This document shows, piece by piece, positions 25,113-31,315 of a stretch of 64,000 nucleotides of DNA. Below the pieces are notes generated by a model. The model ran no database searches. It worked only from the letters and a program-made list of their open reading frames with translations, and was not told the DNA's origin. The stretch's first letter is position 1. Every line of letters starts with the position of its first letter. Location of the stretch: positions 35,263-99,262 of the forward strand of contig CAZUNO010000009.1 of the NCBI GenBank assembly GCA_964621445.1, written 5' to 3'. Origin of the DNA: Candidatus Hadarchaeota archaeon (GTDB lineage: Archaea; CAYQAE01; CAYVLA01). A program made the position numbers and the translations under genes.

Positions 25113-26357
25113 TTGATGGTTAATTGGAAATTTTTCATCGTTTTTTTCCTTATCTTTGTGAGCCAGGCTTCCGGCTCTACAGATGTTGATTCCCTGGAGG
25201 TACTCTGCACCGGCCACGCCTCGGGAATGCCCCTAATGGCATCCATACTGAAACGTGAGCCAATGACCGATTCGGTAATAATCCCCACCCGGATTGGGAG
25301 CCACAACGTCAACCTTGATGGATCCACAATTCGGAGATACATGAGGCTCTATTTTCCTAGGACCTTCCAAGACTTGACCTCCAAATACGAATTCCTTCTT
25401 CTGGAGCAGATAGACAGCAGCTACTTCACCCAGAAACAATTCCAATGGATGAGGAGGGCAGTTGAGGAGGAGGGACTTGGAGGATTACAGGATCGGAGCG
25501 TGATGAGCATGCACCGGGTTTACTCGGATGCTTGGGCACAGTCCCCATTGTCCGACGCCTTTCCAAACGATGCAGATATCGTGGTTGAGGTCGACTATCA
25601 CAGAAATGGTCCTCTGGAGGTCATAATTAACGAGGACCCGGGCATCCCGGATGTGGTGAAACGATATCAGGATGTCCTCAACCTAAACATTGGGGCCTGG
25701 GGCAGCAACCTAATGATCCCCAAAGAGGGCTCCCAAATCTACACCTGGTCCAAGACCGGCCAGTTTCCAGAATTCGCCTTCCCGATAAAGGGCCTTTTCC
25801 CTCATATACTGGGATGGCAGTATGGAAAGGGATATACGTGGTCGGTCCAGGATATACTTGGCTCCAGCTTCTGGCATGAGGGGATCAACCCATATGGAAC
25901 GGACGTAATGATCGCCATGATGATGTACAGCACGGGAAGAAAGCTACCAGAGGATGTCGTCCTTGTCCACAAGCTGAGATCTAGATTTTCAAATTATCTT
26001 GAAAGCAAGAGCTACATTTTCTCGTTGATAGAGTTCGTGGACAAGTTCGGTGCCAACACACAGGATGTCGAGGAGGAGATTCATGCCCTAGATCTCAGGT
26101 GGACCGACTGCAAGGACCTGTACATGCAACAGGCCTATGACGACTCCTGGAATTCCTTGGAAAGCGTTCTCCAGGAACTTAGCACGCTGAGAAAGGAGGC
26201 AATTGAACTAAAGGAGTCCGCCCTGTTCTGGGTCTATGCCACAGAATGGCTAGCCATAACCGGTACATTCCTGATAACAGGCTTCGTGGTCTGGACTCTC
26301 ATGGTTAAGAGGAGGCTTTTCAGGTCCGTTAGTTCCACCAAATTGAAGTCGATCTAG
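25113..26357 (+). CDS. Secreted protein with C-terminal TM anchor, paralog of 30071-31315
   Basis: Signal peptide; IIPTR..RYMRLYFPRT; SDAFPND; helical stalk; LFWVY..EW..TG.FL..GFV.WTLMV. Confidence 0.8.
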   Translation: MMVNWKFFIVFFLIFVSQASGSTDVDSLEVLCTGHASGMPLMASILKREPMTDSVIIPTRIGSHNVNLDGSTIRRYMRLYFPRTFQDLTSKYEFLLLEQIDSSYFTQKQFQWMRRAVEEEGLGGLQDRSVMSMHRVYSDAWAQSPLSDAFPNDADIVVEVDYHRNGPLEVIINEDPGIPDVVKRYQDVLNLNIGAWGSNLMIPKEGSQIYTWSKTGQFPEFAFPIKGLFPHILGWQYGKGYTWSVQDILGSSFWHEGINPYGTDVMIAMMMYSTGRKLPEDVVLVHKLRSRFSNYLESKSYIFSLIEFVDKFGANTQDVEEEIHALDLRWTDCKDLYMQQAYDDSWNSLESVLQELSTLRKEAIELKESALFWVYATEWLAITGTFLITGFVVWTLMVKRRLFRSVSSTKLKSI

Positions 26358-26374
26358 ACAAACCTCGATAAGAG

Positions 26375-26421
26375 TTATATACGAATCGCAGCCAATATTA
26401 TACAAGTTACAGCTTGAATAA
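26375..26421 (+). promoter_or_regulatory. pdxS promoter: TATA box plus inverted-repeat operator
   Basis: TTATATA at 26375-26381; TTATACAAG-N6-CTTGAATAA at 26398-26421; RBS GAGGT. Confidence 0.55.
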
Positions 26422-26432
26422 GAGGTATTAGA

Positions 26433-27335
26433 ATGGCCGAAAAGATCGTAGGAACCGATAGGCTCAAGAGAGGATTTGCCAAGATGCAGAAGGGCGGGGT
26501 AATAATGGATGTCGTCGACGCCGACCAAGCTGGCATCGCCGAGGACGCCGGTGCCGTCGCCGTCATGGCTCTCCATGCCGTTCCCGCCGATATCAGGGCT
26601 GCTGGTGGAGTGGCTAGGATGGCCAACCCAGAGAAGGTTCAGGAGATCATGGACGCGGTCTCCGTACCGGTGATGGCAAAGGTCAGAATAGGGCATTTTG
26701 CCGAGGCCCAGGTGCTGGAGGAAATCGGCGTGGACATGATCGATGAAAGCGAGGTACTTACCCCCGCCGATCAAGCCAACCATATAGATAAGAAGAAATT
26801 TGACATTCCCTTCGTCTGTGGGGCACGGGATCTGGGGGAGGCACTGCGCCGGATAGACGAAGGTGCAGCCATGATACGGACAAAGGGCGAGGCTGGAACC
26901 GGCAACGTGGTCGAGGCTGTCAGGCACATGAGGACGGTTAACAAACAGATAGCGGAACTCAGGGGGCTGGCCGATATCTGCGATGATATTGAACTTTTGG
27001 CCAAGGCTCGAGAATATGGGGCAACCCTGGATCTGGTGAGAGAGGTGGCCAAACTAGGCAGGCTACCCGTCGTCAACTTCGCGGCCGGGGGCATAGCAAC
27101 CCCGGCGGATGCCTCCCTGTGCATGCAGCTCGGTGTGGACGGCGTTTTCGTTGGCAGCGGAATATTCAAGTCCGAATCACCTGAAAAAATGGGCAGTGCC
27201 ATAGTCGAGGCCACCCACAACTACAAGGATCCGAAAATCGTGCTCGATTCATCCAGGTCCCTGGGAGAACCCATGAAGGGCCTGGAGATATCAGACCTGC
27301 CCTCCGATCAAAGGCTTCAGGAAAGAGGCGTATAG
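26433..27335 (+). CDS. pdxS: Pyridoxal 5'-phosphate synthase lyase subunit
   Basis: [53 protein letters not shown]. Confidence 0.97.
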
Positions 27336-27372
27336 CTAGGACCCTGTTTTCACGCCCGAGGAGAGGGATTGC

Positions 27373-28011
27373 TTGCCTACGAAAAGCCCAGATCAATTAG
27401 TGGTTCTGGGTTTTCAAGGCAACGTCGCTGAACATGTGGAAGCCCTGCGATCTGCGGTTGACCGCCTTTCCCTGGACGCGGAAGTGAAATCGGGAACGGA
27501 TCCAGGATCAATAAGAAAGGCCAGCGCGGTCTCCATCCCCGGGGGAGAAAGCACCACCATATCCAGGCTCATAGCACGTAGGGGTCTAAAAAGGGATCTG
27601 ATTCACCTGGCCCGGGAGGGTAAACCCATTCTCGGTACATGTGCCGGGCTTATCCTATTGGCCAGAGAGGTGAATGGGCAGGACGTCACCAAACACCCCG
27701 GATTTCCGGCCGTAATGGATATTTCAGTGCAGAGAAATGCCTTCGGTCGCCAGCGAGAGAGTTTCGAAACCGAGCTGGAGTTGAGATTTCCGGAAAGGAC
27801 CATGAGGGAAACAGGGGTCTTCATCCGCGCCCCGATGATAGAGGAAACCCGAGGCGAATGCTGGCCCATCTCCTGGATCGATGGTGCCATAGTAGCGGCC
27901 ACAGAGGGAAATATAATCGGGACCTGCTTCCACCCGGAGCTAACTAGAGAATCTCGTATATACGATCACCTTCTCCTCAGGGCCGGTATGGGGGATGGGC
28001 AGGCTGACTGA
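27373..28011 (+). CDS. pdxT: PLP synthase glutaminase subunit
   Basis: IPGGESTT, GTCAGLILL, RNAFGRQRESFE, FIRAP, FHPEL. Confidence 0.95.
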   Translation: MPTKSPDQLVVLGFQGNVAEHVEALRSAVDRLSLDAEVKSGTDPGSIRKASAVSIPGGESTTISRLIARRGLKRDLIHLAREGKPILGTCAGLILLAREVNGQDVTKHPGFPAVMDISVQRNAFGRQRESFETELELRFPERTMRETGVFIRAPMIEETRGECWPISWIDGAIVAATEGNIIGTCFHPELTRESRIYDHLLLRAGMGDGQAD

Positions 28012-29494
28012 ACAGGCATTCCTGGGCTTTCAATGCAATAGATGTGGATTAACCAGATCCAGCCCTGGAAATTTTCACTGTGATTCCTGCGATGGGGGTG
28101 TATTCGAGGCCCGGTACGATCTATCCGCCATCTCAGAAATGCCCAAGGACGAAAGCCCATCGGTCTGGAAATACGCCAAGCTTCTCCCCCCCGTCGAGTC
28201 CAGCATAACCCTTGGAGAAGGAGGAACGCCGCTTTTCGAATGTGAGAGGGCCATTTCCAATAGGAGGATATTTCTTAAGGATGAATCGAGAAACCCCACC
28301 TCCTCCTTTACAGACCGGGGAAGCACGGTCGCCGTTAGCGCCTCGCTAAATTCCGGTATTTCCAGGGTCGTTTGCGCCACCCATGGTGACACGGGGGCCT
28401 CCGTGGCCGCCTACTCATCAAAGGGCGGACTTCCATGCACCATCTTCGCTCCCACCTCGGCGGAGGCCAGCAAGCTACTCCAGACCCTGGTCTACGGGGC
28501 AAAGCTCGTGAGAATTCCTGGTGCCTTTAGAAATTCCCTGGAAAGATGCAAGGCTGCTTGCAGGGAGGGGTGTACTAACCTTACCCTCGAGACGAACGTC
28601 CACGCTGTCGAGGGCGAAAAGACCACTGGAATTGAAATAGCCGATCAGCTGGGATGGACAGCGCCCGATTTCGTGGTTGTCCCGGCGGGCACGGGAACCA
28701 ATCTCTACGCCACCTGGAAGGGCTACAAGGAGATGGAGCAGGCGGGAATTATCTCAAGGCTGCCGCAGATGGTTGCAGTCCAGGCCGAAGCCTGTGCCCC
28801 CATAGCCAACGCACATAAGGAGGGAAATCAGGTCCAGCGCCAGGAAGCCACAAGGTCTATCGCTTCGAGCATCGCAATTAGGGATCCCCTAAATGGTCAC
28901 CTGGCATTAAATGCCCTTCGGGAATCGGGAGGAACTGCCTTTACCGTATCCGAGGAGGGCATGATCCAGGCCGTTAACATACTGGGAGCCAAGGAAGGGA
29001 TCTTCGCGGAACCCGCATCTGCTGCAACCATTTGTGCGGCCCAAATGTTATTTGAGACGGGAAGAACGGATAGCTCCGATATGGTAGTATGTGTGGTCAC
29101 CGGAAGCGGACTCAAGGTACCGGAAGGAATCGCCAGTAGCCTAAAGCCCAGGCTTCAGTCCTCCTGGGACCTGGTTAGCATGGAACAGAAATCATTGGGA
29201 GCCCTGGGACGGACAAAGATGCAGATACTGGAGATAATTGGCATCGCTCCCAGCTATGGATATGACATCCGGAAACAGCTAGCGGAGAGATACCGGGATG
29301 AAATCAGCCTTCAAGCCGTGTATCAACATCTGGATGAGCTTAGGGAAATGGGCCTCATAACCGTTGAGTCTACGGAAGAGAAGACCTCCAGAAGGAATTA
29401 CTTTCGGCTAACCACCAGAGGGGAGGAGACATTTAGATCCCTGAACACCATACGAGATACCCTCCTGAATTACTCGAAAGAAGAAACCAAATAA
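27995..29494 (+). CDS. Threonine-synthase-fold protein lacking the PLP lysine, fused to a C-terminal PadR-type wHTH
   Basis: Zn ribbon, ITLGEGGTPL, KDESRNPTSSFTDRG (K to T), PAGTGTNL, EPASAA, VVTGSGLK; tail SYGYDIRKQL..AVYQHLDELREMGLI..RRNYFRLTTRG. Confidence 0.85.
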   Translation: MGRLTEQAFLGFQCNRCGLTRSSPGNFHCDSCDGGVFEARYDLSAISEMPKDESPSVWKYAKLLPPVESSITLGEGGTPLFECERAISNRRIFLKDESRNPTSSFTDRGSTVAVSASLNSGISRVVCATHGDTGASVAAYSSKGGLPCTIFAPTSAEASKLLQTLVYGAKLVRIPGAFRNSLERCKAACREGCTNLTLETNVHAVEGEKTTGIEIADQLGWTAPDFVVVPAGTGTNLYATWKGYKEMEQAGIISRLPQMVAVQAEACAPIANAHKEGNQVQRQEATRSIASSIAIRDPLNGHLALNALRESGGTAFTVSEEGMIQAVNILGAKEGIFAEPASAATICAAQMLFETGRTDSSDMVVCVVTGSGLKVPEGIASSLKPRLQSSWDLVSMEQKSLGALGRTKMQILEIIGIAPSYGYDIRKQLAERYRDEISLQAVYQHLDELREMGLITVESTEEKTSRRNYFRLTTRGEETFRSLNTIRDTLLNYSKEETK

Positions 29495-29664
29495 CATCCT
29501 GACTCCATATCATTCTATACCCGCTTGCAACCCCTGGCGGACCTGCGAAGGCGAAAAATGCTATTTTTAACTGATTGGGTGGCTCTACGCCCCCTATTAT
29601 CCCCCGGCGAGTTGGAAATCTTTTTATTTGCCCTAACAAGAAGTTATGGTACCGGTGATAAGCA

Positions 29665-29868
29665 ATGGGAAAACTTCCGCTGGCACCAGTTGAAAGGATA
29701 ATCAAACAGAATGCAAATGCCGAGAGAGTTAGTGCATCGGCTTCCGAGGAATTGGCAGAGGTCCTTGAGGAATATGGAACAGAGGTAGCCTCCAAGGCCG
29801 TTGAGTTGGCTAGACACGCCGGACGGAAGACCGTGAAGGCCGAAGATATCAAGCTGGCTGCCAGGTAA
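29665..29868 (+). CDS. Archaeal histone (HMf family)
   Basis: [33 protein letters not shown]. Confidence 0.95.
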
Positions 29869-30070: not shown

Positions 30071-31315
30071 TTGTCTTCAAGGCTCACGATAATTACCGTC
30101 ACCGTTCTACTTCTGGGAATTATAGCAGGCGCATCAGCTCAGGAAAAACCCAGGATAATCAAGGTTATCGGTACGGGAAAGGCCGAGGGCATGCCCATAC
30201 TCACCTCCTGGTTCACCACCGAGCCTTCAACTGAGCCAATAATAATTCCGACCAGGGCCTATGGTGAAGTTGGTGCAGGGGATATCCAGAGATTCATGCG
30301 GATATACTTCCCGAGAACCTATGAAAACCTTCTACAATACGAGTTCTTTTTCATGGCCCAGGTGGACATGCAGTTTATAGGGCCAAAGCAGGAGAAGTGG
30401 ATCTTCAATGCGCTGTCCCAACATCCCAAGGGAGGGGTGAACACGAGAAGCATAATGAGCACTCACGACTGGCTCCACCTCCCATGGAGGGACAGCATAA
30501 TTTCCGATGCCTTCCCAAATGACGTTTCCGCGATAATTGCCGATACGGGAAATAAACAGGGAGAGCCAGGAACGCTCATCATAAAGGATGATCCAGCACT
30601 GCCCAACATAATGAAATCATTCAAGGACCCCATAGAGGGGGTTTTTGGTCAATACGCGGGCCTCAATACCATCCCAAAACCCGGCTCAGTTATCCTCTCT
30701 TACACCAGGAACAATCAAGGCATAGGACACCCCGTGCCTGGCCAGATAGCCCATGTTTTTTACTGGAGGTGGAACGAATCGATAACCTTCACCTTCCAGG
30801 ATATGGTTTACGACAGGTTCTGGAGTCCCAGGCAATCAACCGGCCAGACAAACCCCTATGCCCCCGATATCATCGCCAATATCGTCTGGTTTAGCACGGG
30901 CAGGGAGCTACCAAATGACCCATTCAAGGTCCACGACTTCAGGAGGGACCTTTACGACTTCCAGATCAAGAAGAGCCTCCTAGTCAGCCTCCTGGAATTC
31001 GCCGAAAGTTTCGGGGCCAATCCGGATCGGGAATATGATAACCTGGGCGAGGTGGAAGATATGAGATCCACGGCTTCCGATTATTACCTGGAAGGGGACT
31101 TCGATGCCGCCTACAATGAAATGGAGCTAGCACTTGAACAGATGGTGGAGCTGGAAGAGCAGGCTTCCCAGCTCAAGAACAAAGCCCTATTCTGGGTATA
31201 CGTAGTCGAGTGGACGGTTACTACCGGCGTTTTTCTGGTTGCCGGTTTCGTCCTTTGGACGCTTATGGTTAGAAGAGCACTATATCATGAGGTTGGGGAA
31301 ACCAGGACCTTCTAG
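30071..31315 (+). CDS. Secreted protein with C-terminal TM anchor, paralog of 25113-26357
   Basis: Same length (414 aa) and shared motifs FMRIYFPRT, SDAFPND, NPY, TGRELP, FGAN, LFWVY. Confidence 0.8.
   Translation: MSSRLTIITVTVLLLGIIAGASAQEKPRIIKVIGTGKAEGMPILTSWFTTEPSTEPIIIPTRAYGEVGAGDIQRFMRIYFPRTYENLLQYEFFFMAQVDMQFIGPKQEKWIFNALSQHPKGGVNTRSIMSTHDWLHLPWRDSIISDAFPNDVSAIIADTGNKQGEPGTLIIKDDPALPNIMKSFKDPIEGVFGQYAGLNTIPKPGSVILSYTRNNQGIGHPVPGQIAHVFYWRWNESITFTFQDMVYDRFWSPRQSTGQTNPYAPDIIANIVWFSTGRELPNDPFKVHDFRRDLYDFQIKKSLLVSLLEFAESFGANPDREYDNLGEVEDMRSTASDYYLEGDFDAAYNEMELALEQMVELEEQASQLKNKALFWVYVVEWTVTTGVFLVAGFVLWTLMVRRALYHEVGETRTF

Follow-up and report, generated by a model that had tools for sequence, protein, structure and literature searches.

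Why would an archaeal operon for vitamin B6 synthesis end in a gene that resembles threonine synthase (ThrC)? The question arises from a 64,000-nucleotide (nt) stretch of Candidatus Hadarchaeota archaeon DNA (contig CAZUNO010000009.1; hereafter the window, in whose numbering coordinates are given), where pdxS, pdxT and a third open reading frame (ORF), ORF3, are co-directional on the plus strand and form one operon. The first two genes encode pyridoxal 5'-phosphate (PLP) synthase, as they are adjacent and both score above their NCBIfam equivalog cut-offs: pdxS, the lyase subunit (26433..27335; PF01680, 2.7e-102; NF003215, 490.9 bits against a cut-off of 395), and pdxT, the glutaminase subunit, with a TTG start (27373..28011; PF01174, 1.2e-42; TIGR03800, 163.5 bits against 105.55). 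ORF3 (27995..29494, plus strand) encodes 499 amino acids (aa) that we describe as a ThrC-fold pseudoenzyme followed by a PadR-type winged helix-turn-helix (wHTH), and it is probably an undescribed B6-sensing gene regulator. We put at roughly 0.7 the probability that ORF3 is a B6-responsive transcription factor, an archaeal analogue of the bacterial regulator PdxR, and not a threonine synthase. Comparative genomics supports this interpretation and extends it from one operon to a pan-archaeal family. We lean, with rather less assurance, towards the broader claim that this family consists of B6-responsive transcription factors derived from dead ThrC, the first archaeal B6 regulators and the first regulators with a fold-type-II PLP sensor, which would control pdxST in prototrophs and HmpT/PdxU2-like uptake in apparent auxotrophs.

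The plus-strand features of ORF3 follow in the order of a zinc-ribbon-like CxxC...CxxC motif at the N terminus (C16, C19, C31 and C34, read from the sequence; 28040..28096), a fold-type-II PLP (PALP) domain (residues 71-370; 28205..29104), a flexible linker (residues 375-401; 29117..29197) with a predicted local distance difference test score (pLDDT) below 50, and a PadR-type wHTH (residues 411-481; 29225..29437). In 60 family members the second cysteine pair of the ribbon (C29 and C32 in alignment count) is invariant and the first (C14 and C17) nearly so; the ribbon also occurs in unfused long-form ThrC, for example in the neighbour of the fusion gene at locus L015 (loci, genomes and contigs are given by our own L, G and C numbers). 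The PALP domain matches PF00291 (1.9e-68) and lies above the cut-off of TIGR00260 (210.5 bits against 167.1), and alignments to solved ThrC structures (PDB 2zsj, 2d1f, 1uim and 6cgq) show 31-38% identity over about 340 residues. Built from the 60 family members, an AlphaFold2 model of ORF3 has a mean pLDDT of 86.6, and its best Foldseek matches are all threonine synthases (2zsj_A, E 6.7e-28, TMt 0.83), so that profile and fold together identify the domain as ThrC-like. The wHTH matches PF03551 (5.7e-14; 52.3 bits against a cut-off of 27), PadR and RosR chains from the PDB align to residues 405-482, and the model has three helices and a beta hairpin there (helices 406-417, 422-433 and 439-451, hairpin 455-472) with block-mean pLDDT of 72-96 over residues 401-480, as expected from a PadR profile and a wHTH fold. 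In Pfam searches ORF3 gave no GntR or aminotransferase match, only PALP (fold type II) and the C-terminal PadR domain.

Although ORF3 has the sequence and fold of ThrC, it lacks the Schiff-base lysine of a threonine synthase. Its motifs read NPTSSFTDRG, CATHGDTGAS, VVPAGTGTN and VVTGSGLK, and in alignments with 2zsj and 2d1f the lysine of SFKDRG stands opposite Thr106, encoded by ACA at 28310..28312 on the plus strand. An earlier note on this DNA, made from the letters alone, had described a 17-nt overlap with pdxT, a PadR-like wHTH behind a ThrC-fold domain, SFTDRG in place of SFKDRG, and retention of the phosphate loop PAGTGTN and of TGSGLK; all of this stands, the overlap by the ORF coordinates (ATG at 27995, pdxT stop at 28009-28011), the wHTH by the PF03551 match and the model, and the lysine exchange by the alignments with solved threonine synthases. 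The note had also pointed to a change of STGN to THGD, which is present in ORF3 (the canonical ThrC of the same genome reads CASTGNTSAS where ORF3 has CATHGDTGAS) but is not a family trait, since the closest relatives read TDGD and most of the family TNGN. Its suggestion that the ACA codon be confirmed led to contigs from three public runs of two studies (X1 record 2, X2 record 5 and X3 record 13), which cover the codon with no other letter, with the reservations that X1 may be the source sample and that contigs can hide rare variants. The X3 contig represents a variant strain (95-99%) with 8 differences elsewhere and has the same ACA.

The threonine pathway of this genome has its own enzyme. 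A canonical ThrC of 365 aa on contig C11, with SFKDRG and ASTGNTSAS, adjoins the genes for homoserine dehydrogenase and aspartate kinase, and in a TIGR00260 search of the genome it scores 333.5 bits against 212.1 bits for ORF3. ORF3 is a ThrC paralogue, not the genome's threonine-pathway copy, and the presence of a housekeeping ThrC elsewhere fits the regulatory role that the earlier note had proposed. Nor is the fusion an isolated event: 119 of the 120 best database matches of ORF3 carry both PF00291 and PF03551 and, where source names are given, are called "threonine synthase". We find it in contigs labelled Hadarchaeota, Bathyarchaeia, Thorarchaeota, Hermodarchaeota, Jordarchaeum, Nitrososphaerota, Thermoplasmata and Methanomethylicota. 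Within the GTDB phylum of the window, which holds five genomes, the fusion occurs in all four genomes of the window's family; the fifth, from another family, has only an unfused, lysine-bearing ThrC-like gene that does not lie beside pdxST.

To place these fusions relative to ThrC, we aligned 284 rows, comprising the best 120 database matches and the ThrC-like ORFs from 160-odd loci, two overlapping sets that were not de-duplicated (one row shorter than 330 aa was dropped). The best-120 list is biased towards relatives of a lysine-less query, and the loci, drawn from genome and metagenome scans, are a sample and not a census; the metagenome scan touched at least 592 stretches, with few fusions among the matches listed. 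In a FastTree phylogeny of PALP columns only, with the lysine column masked, the fused rows all group in a single clade (support 67; the root was not inferred, and long branches call for caution). Three subclades differ in what replaces the lysine: an A/T subclade that holds the window (n=20, support 100), in which the Thr of ORF3 is unique and the rest have Ala; a hydrophobic subclade with I, L, V or M (n=36, support 99); and an R/K subclade (n=103, support 100), in which two K groups, of 37 and 3 rows, are nested inside R. Judging by this nesting, lysine in the R/K subclade looks regained from arginine, by one base change, and not retained, which suggests shifts in how the ligand is held; the choice of vitamer may depend on the residue in place of lysine (A/T, I/L/V/M, or R with K regained). 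In three related Bathyarchaeia loci, L015 (155-1432), L020 and L021, a canonical lysine-bearing long-form ThrC lies one or two genes upstream of the fusion on the opposite strand, which may be a trace of the founding duplication or a matter of chance.

Loss of the lysine tracks with the wHTH fusion, the correlation that the earlier note had asked for. Among the fused rows (n=157) the column holds R in 58, K in 40, A in 17, I in 15, L in 11, V in 8, M in 3, S in 2, T in 1 (ORF3, whose closest relatives have Ala) and a gap in 2, compared with K in 125 and R in 2 of the 127 unfused rows; both of these R rows are fused genes cut short by the end of a contig, and in the tree they group within the fused R-type rows. 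The surroundings of the lost lysine are kept in the fused rows: position 105 is F or Y in 155 of 157, D107 and R108 are each present in 155, the phosphate-loop glycines G232 and G234 in all 157, T369 in 156, G372 and K374 in 157, L373 in 156-157, and F337 and E339 of the FAEP motif in 157. The S-T of ASTGN is mostly T-N, and its Asn has become Asp in the window's clade. One might explain a conserved cofactor pocket, together with the quarter of fused rows that keep or have regained lysine, by a bifunctional "trigger enzyme" that combines regulation with catalysis on a B6-related compound, using free PLP or no PLP; we think this quite unlikely, since lysine is absent from 115 of the 155 fused rows that carry any residue in the column, the replacements (A, T, I, L, V, M, R and S) share no chemistry, and the PdxST route, according to an excerpt of one source (PMC9997740), makes PLP directly and so leaves no missing reaction to fill. 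Still harder to credit, indeed barely credible, is that ORF3 is a decaying, functionless ThrC duplicate fused by chance to a PadR gene: the catalytic lysine is lost, as decay would have it, but the frame is intact, the clade is single and deep with conserved synteny, and 60 members from several phyla share 43 invariant columns that extend into the wHTH (K408, Y423, Y443, H445 and G476).

While the cofactor side of the pocket is preserved, the substrate side is not. In the unfused rows (n=125) the NSxNPxR motif has N in 88, S in 91 (position 199) and R in 107 (position 204); among the fused rows, 117 of 157 have Glu at position 199, and A, S, F, V or T occupies position 204, where Arg is not one of the five commonest residues. 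ORF3 itself has L198, E199 and A204. We take the N-S and R of this motif to hold the phosphate of O-phosphohomoserine, as they reportedly do in Thermus thermophilus structures. If these roles are right, no member of the fused clade, not even those with K, can bind the ThrC substrate, and the cofactor site would have survived in the fused clade while the substrate-phosphate residues are gone. This bears on whether the sensor might instead read amino-acid status, whether as threonine, O-phosphohomoserine, homoserine or a PLP-amino-acid aldimine, and tune B6 supply to demand. The domain does derive from ThrC, canonical ThrC genes lie near the fusion in L015, L020 and L021, and the effector of GabR-type MocR regulators is a PLP-amino-acid adduct, as stated in part of one source (PMC5320631). 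Yet the presumed substrate-phosphate positions are replaced throughout the fused clade, the thrC-hom-ask cluster of the window's genome lies elsewhere and unlinked, and the recurrent neighbours of the fusion are B6 genes and not threonine genes, so that we consider sensing of amino-acid status unlikely.

The gene neighbourhood is what points to vitamin B6. The order pdxS-pdxT-fusion is colinear in four of four genomes of the window's family (in one of them cut by a contig end), so the synteny of the A/T clade rests on 4 genomes of one family. Outside it, pdxS-pdxT lies divergent from the fusion in a Thermoplasmata locus (L018; Leu at the lysine column, 195 nt between the genes) and a Nitrososphaerales locus (L032; Ile, 149 nt). 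Among the matches listed, window included, 43 loci carry the fusion: 6 adjoin pdxST, 26 adjoin the S component of an energy-coupling factor (ECF) transporter, 8 have no flank on the relevant side and 3 are exceptions, whereas neither pdxST nor the S component lies beside any of the 121 unfused ThrC-like loci among those matches. The linkage to B6 genes about which the earlier note had asked is conserved, and it is wider than pdxST. Neighbour clustering of 40 fusion loci returned one dominant family in 24 of them (26 by hidden Markov model), and this family is the S component (PF07155, E 1e-27 to 1e-37). In 16 R/K-type loci it immediately follows the fusion gene on the same strand, in L041, L045 and L046 it lies downstream and convergent, and in the hydrophobic subclade it is directly upstream and divergent.

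For three S components compared with the PDB, 4hzu_S was the sole match at E up to 1 (1.1e-20, 2.6e-11 and 4.8e-12). The structure 4HZU is that of Lactobacillus brevis HmpT/PdxU2; extraction of this protein yielded pyridoxamine, as mass spectrometry showed, and its six conserved pocket residues are E41, H84, Q87, Y120, N140 and Q143 (PMC4860826); PF07155 holds the B6 carriers PdxU and PdxU2, as an excerpt of another source has it (PMC9997740). As read by eye from an alignment of the L041 protein to HmpT, the acid, the Tyr and the Asn are conserved, with a Gln two residues away from the Q143 match. The name HmpT raises the question whether the family senses the thiamine precursor hydroxymethylpyrimidine (HMP), or its phosphate, with a true HmpT as the neighbour. 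That reading draws on the first name of the neighbour's only PDB match and on a PurM/ThiL-like gene that follows the neighbour in 9 R-type loci and occurs also in L033. We regard it as very unlikely: pdxST accompanies the fusion at six loci from two subclades, the regulator's motif marks one unlinked pdxS (see below), no thiamine gene is among the recurrent neighbours, the PurM-like protein falls below the ThiL cut-off (87.1 against 184.15 bits), and pyridoxamine, not HMP, came from HmpT in the passages cited (PMC4860826).

The PurM/AIR-synthase-like gene deserves a word of its own. It encodes about 335-341 aa, stands after the S component in 9 R-type loci (for example L006:9234-10259, and the +2 genes of L005, L007, L010, L025, L095, L096 and L103) and upstream in L033, and a similar gene occurs in 1 of the 121 unfused loci (L166). 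The protein matches PF00586 and PF02769 and scores below the cut-offs of HypE (124.4 against 251.6 bits), ThiL and SelD (70.4 against 125); one possibility is that it serves B6 salvage, as an ATP-dependent enzyme so far undescribed, in lineages in which PdxS was not detected. The Thorarchaeota loci L004 (4858-6252), L008 and L019 share another gene beside the S component, of 426-464 aa, and its copy in L004 has no Pfam or NCBIfam match.

Which of the two B6 neighbours accompanies the fusion appears to depend on whether the genome makes the vitamin. PdxS was not found in any of the 8 genomes with transporter-linked fusions that were searched, and PdxJ in none of the 5 tested; these are metagenome-assembled genomes (MAGs) of unknown completeness, and the absences are suggestive only. 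The same search found PdxS in four of four archaeal control genomes. Conversely, the genome of the window has pdxST and no PF07155 gene above the cut-off. The pattern suggests that the fusion goes with synthesis genes where the pathway exists and with uptake genes where it does not.

If the fusion proteins are regulators, their targets should carry operators, and the promoter of the window's operon offers one candidate. Upstream of pdxS, a BRE/TATA-like box ATAAGAGTTATATAC on the plus strand (26368..26382; TAAGAGTTAAATAC-like), conserved in four of four genomes of the family, probably works as the promoter, to judge from its sequence. The genome has 23 boxes related to ATAAGAGTTATATAC within 2 mismatches, which marks it as a generic promoter element and not an operator; for the same reason we rejected two other operator candidates, the direct repeat ATAAGAGTTAT / ATAAGAGGTAT and the box TAAGAGTTAWATAC. 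The candidate is a 14-bp imperfect palindrome, CAAGTTACAGCTTG, at 26403..26416, 30 to 17 nt before the pdxS ATG and inside the stretch 26390-26430 that the earlier note had singled out for binding assays. The flanks upstream of pdxS have otherwise diverged among the window, L003, L092 and L093, and the best matches to CAAGTT-N2-AACTTG within 120 nt upstream of pdxS have 1, 1, 2 and 1 mismatches, respectively, against a pattern that was defined from the same four promoters. With at most 1 mismatch, the genome has three such sites, namely that of pdxS, a second within an ORF of C10 and a third at the start of C61, close to ORFs that by eye look PIN-domain-like, and the genome-wide search gave no evidence of a wider CAAGTT-N2-AACTTG regulon. 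The palindrome at 26403-26416 thus stays a candidate operator only.

A second motif carries more weight. In the hydrophobic subclade, 12 of 13 loci have a bipartite motif, ATATATAA-N7-CCTATATAT(AGG), 20-130 nt upstream of the fusion gene, in contigs of Thorarchaeota, Bathyarchaeia, Nitrososphaerota, Thermoplasmata and Pelearchaeum; 9 sequences share the palindrome, compared with never more than 2 in shuffled controls. In regulator promoters the site takes the form ATATATAA-N7-CCTATATATAGG. Searching five genomes (10.2 Mb) with ATAT-N11-CYTATATRT returned only 7 sites, against an estimated chance rate of about 0.4 hits per genome and 0 for the reversed control pattern: 5 in regulator promoters, one in the promoter of the G011 pdxS, and one in G012 that precedes a PstS-like gene. 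By our reading, 21 nt separate the end of the G011 site (G011:C4:39130-39153) from the first ATG in frame with pdxS. The G011 regulator (L058) has no B6 neighbour at all, and the motif occurs in that genome only at its own promoter and at that of pdxS, which appears to be the kind of hit that a regulon predicts. Since the bipartite element overlaps TATA-like sequence, it would suit a repressor that competes with the TATA-binding protein (TBP) and transcription factor B (TFB).

The remaining site (L184; G012:C12:9870-9893) shortly precedes the probable start of a gene whose translation, read by eye, resembles a PstS-type phosphate-binding protein, in a genome where PdxS was not found. At about 0.4 hits per genome this site may have arisen by chance, or the gene product may be a binding protein for phosphorylated vitamers. 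Locus L015 was unusable for motif work owing to a masked run of about 95 N that ends about 35 nt upstream of position 2187.

How might such a protein work? The dead ThrC-fold domain would keep its cofactor pocket and dimerise as ThrC does without a Schiff-base lysine, and would bind a B6 vitamer, whether PLP, pyridoxamine 5'-phosphate (PMP) or pyridoxine 5'-phosphate (PNP), with no internal aldimine. The predicted quaternary structure supports a homodimer through the ThrC-like face: two copies of residues 50-499 modelled with PLP score 0.80 against 0.00 for the best control. Of proteins whose solved structures are pairs, 20 of 30 attain the pass mark, and of those solved as single chains, 1 of 23 does. 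The score covers the protein pair only, the PLP molecules being unscored. The runs agree in at least 54% of contacts, with partner pLDDT of at least 81, and because ThrC dimers have already been solved, this result may reflect memory or likeness. The predicted interface comprises the ThrC-like face (99-103, 139-173, 327-337 and 371-374) and the first helix of the linker (376-390), not the wHTH. It contacts the NPT and TGSGLK stretches, which border the cofactor site, and would therefore offer a plausible route from ligand occupancy to wHTH geometry, so that a bound vitamer would shift the placement of the two wHTH domains in the dimer. The liganded protein would then sit on an operator at or just downstream of the TATA box, before the start of pdxS (for which 26403-26416 is the candidate), and plentiful B6 would repress pdxS-pdxT-ORF3, a negative feedback with autoregulation. 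In other lineages the protein would repress its own gene along with the divergent or downstream B6 transporter. As to sign, the vitamer would act as a co-repressor, as we infer, or as an anti-activator, as described for PdxR in part of one source (PMC5320631). H/D130 and D132, near C4' in the window's clade, might favour PMP, which is speculation.

Several points weigh against this model of a B6-responsive regulator. Because 40 of the 157 fused rows keep the lysine, some members could retain the ability to form an internal aldimine or even to catalyse a reaction. A literature check did not confirm the roles that we assign to the NSxNPxR residues. At three loci whose flanks are complete (L024, L058 and L100), no B6 gene adjoins the fusion. 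Riboflavin carriers, too, belong to PF07155, HMP was the substrate first predicted for HmpT, and in the archaeal S components, as we read the alignment, H84 of HmpT is replaced by K and Q87 by E. The three genomic matches to CAAGTT-N2-AACTTG compare with an estimated 7 or so expected by chance, and the R/K subclade shows no shared palindrome beyond close relatives in 19 upstream regions, or in these and 3 more inspected by eye. PadR proteins, moreover, are usually released from DNA by their ligand, which is the wrong sign for end-product control. Finally, binding of a ligand by ORF3, the non-covalent nature of that binding, and binding to DNA are steps that we infer.

Even so, the reading of ORF3 as a convergent regulator built on a fold-type-II pseudoenzyme, which the earlier note had advanced from this one operon, is supported by loss of the lysine in most of the family, linkage to B6 genes and the separate housekeeping ThrC. 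In the full text, supplements excluded, of open-access PMC and bioRxiv papers, we found no ThrC-PadR or other fold-type-II PLP regulator and no archaeal regulator of vitamin B6. If the reading is true, hundreds of database entries named "threonine synthase" are regulators, and metabolic reconstructions of Bathyarchaeia, Asgard and ammonia-oxidising archaea are affected. It would present a lysine-less PLP-fold protein as a natural vitamer sensor, and a case of convergent evolution in which another PLP fold and another type of wHTH reached the same regulon of pdxST and a PdxU-type transporter. It would also flag probable B6 auxotrophy, together with a system for B6 uptake, in uncultured archaea that are abundant, a help in bringing them into culture, and the conserved bipartite motif supplies candidate operators that are directly testable.

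The surroundings of the operon add a few features. A T5 run on the plus strand (29564..29568), about 70 nt past the ORF3 stop, may by its sequence be an archaeal terminator. Directly downstream is an archaeal histone gene (29665-29868; PF00808, 9.4e-21), which supports the archaeal origin of the window. Two paralogous ORFs of 414 aa (25113-26357 and 30071-31315) bracket the pdxST-ORF3-histone block; neither has a Pfam match, and by eye both have a hydrophobic N terminus and a hydrophobic stretch near the C terminus. Homologues hold the same position in L003 and L092, and another relative lies on contig C10 (by eye).

Set beside known systems, ORF3 shares with ThrC the fold, the long-form zinc ribbon, the PLP phosphate loop, TGxGLK and, in the model, the dimer face; it differs in lacking the Schiff-base lysine, in the replaced NS...R residues, in the added wHTH and in its place outside a threonine operon. 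The NCBIfam profile NF004170 (PRK05638, "threonine synthase") spans both domains of ORF3 (profile positions 3-438 of 442, residues 13-480), which means that the fusion has already been modelled as a protein family. ORF3 falls under its cut-off (342.6 bits against 421), and the profile's name would denote an activity that most members cannot have, if our reading is right. With the PadR family (PF03551; PDB 6abt and 5dym; RosR, 6qfd) ORF3 shares the wHTH sequence, the predicted fold and, as modelled, a dimeric state. Classical PadR proteins have about 100-180 aa and sense their ligand at the wHTH or at the C-terminal helix of the dimer, whereas ORF3 has an enzyme-like domain of 390 aa in front. 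The design principle, in which an enzyme domain from a vitamin pathway becomes the sensor of a DNA-binding regulator for the genes of that vitamin, reportedly has an archaeal precedent in ThiR, a thiamine regulator said to use the enzyme-like ThiN domain as its sensor; ThiR is said to differ in the vitamin, the enzyme fold and the DNA-binding domain.

The comparison that the earlier note had drawn with PdxR, a bacterial regulator of the MocR/GntR type, fits. Both proteins combine a sensor derived from a PLP enzyme with a wHTH, and gene context and motif here point to the targets that an excerpt on PdxR regulons names, pdxST and pdxU, the latter an ECF S component of the PdxU type (PMC5320631). 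In both, the regulator gene lies beside its known or presumed targets, for PdxR often divergently, according to the same excerpt (PMC5320631), which also states that MocR regulators are absent from Archaea. The architectures are nevertheless distinct: PdxR starts with a GntR wHTH, which is joined to an aminotransferase-like domain of fold type I, whereas ORF3 has a C-terminal PadR wHTH and a fold-type-II ThrC-like domain, in a family mostly without the lysine. ORF3 is analogous to PdxR, not related to it.

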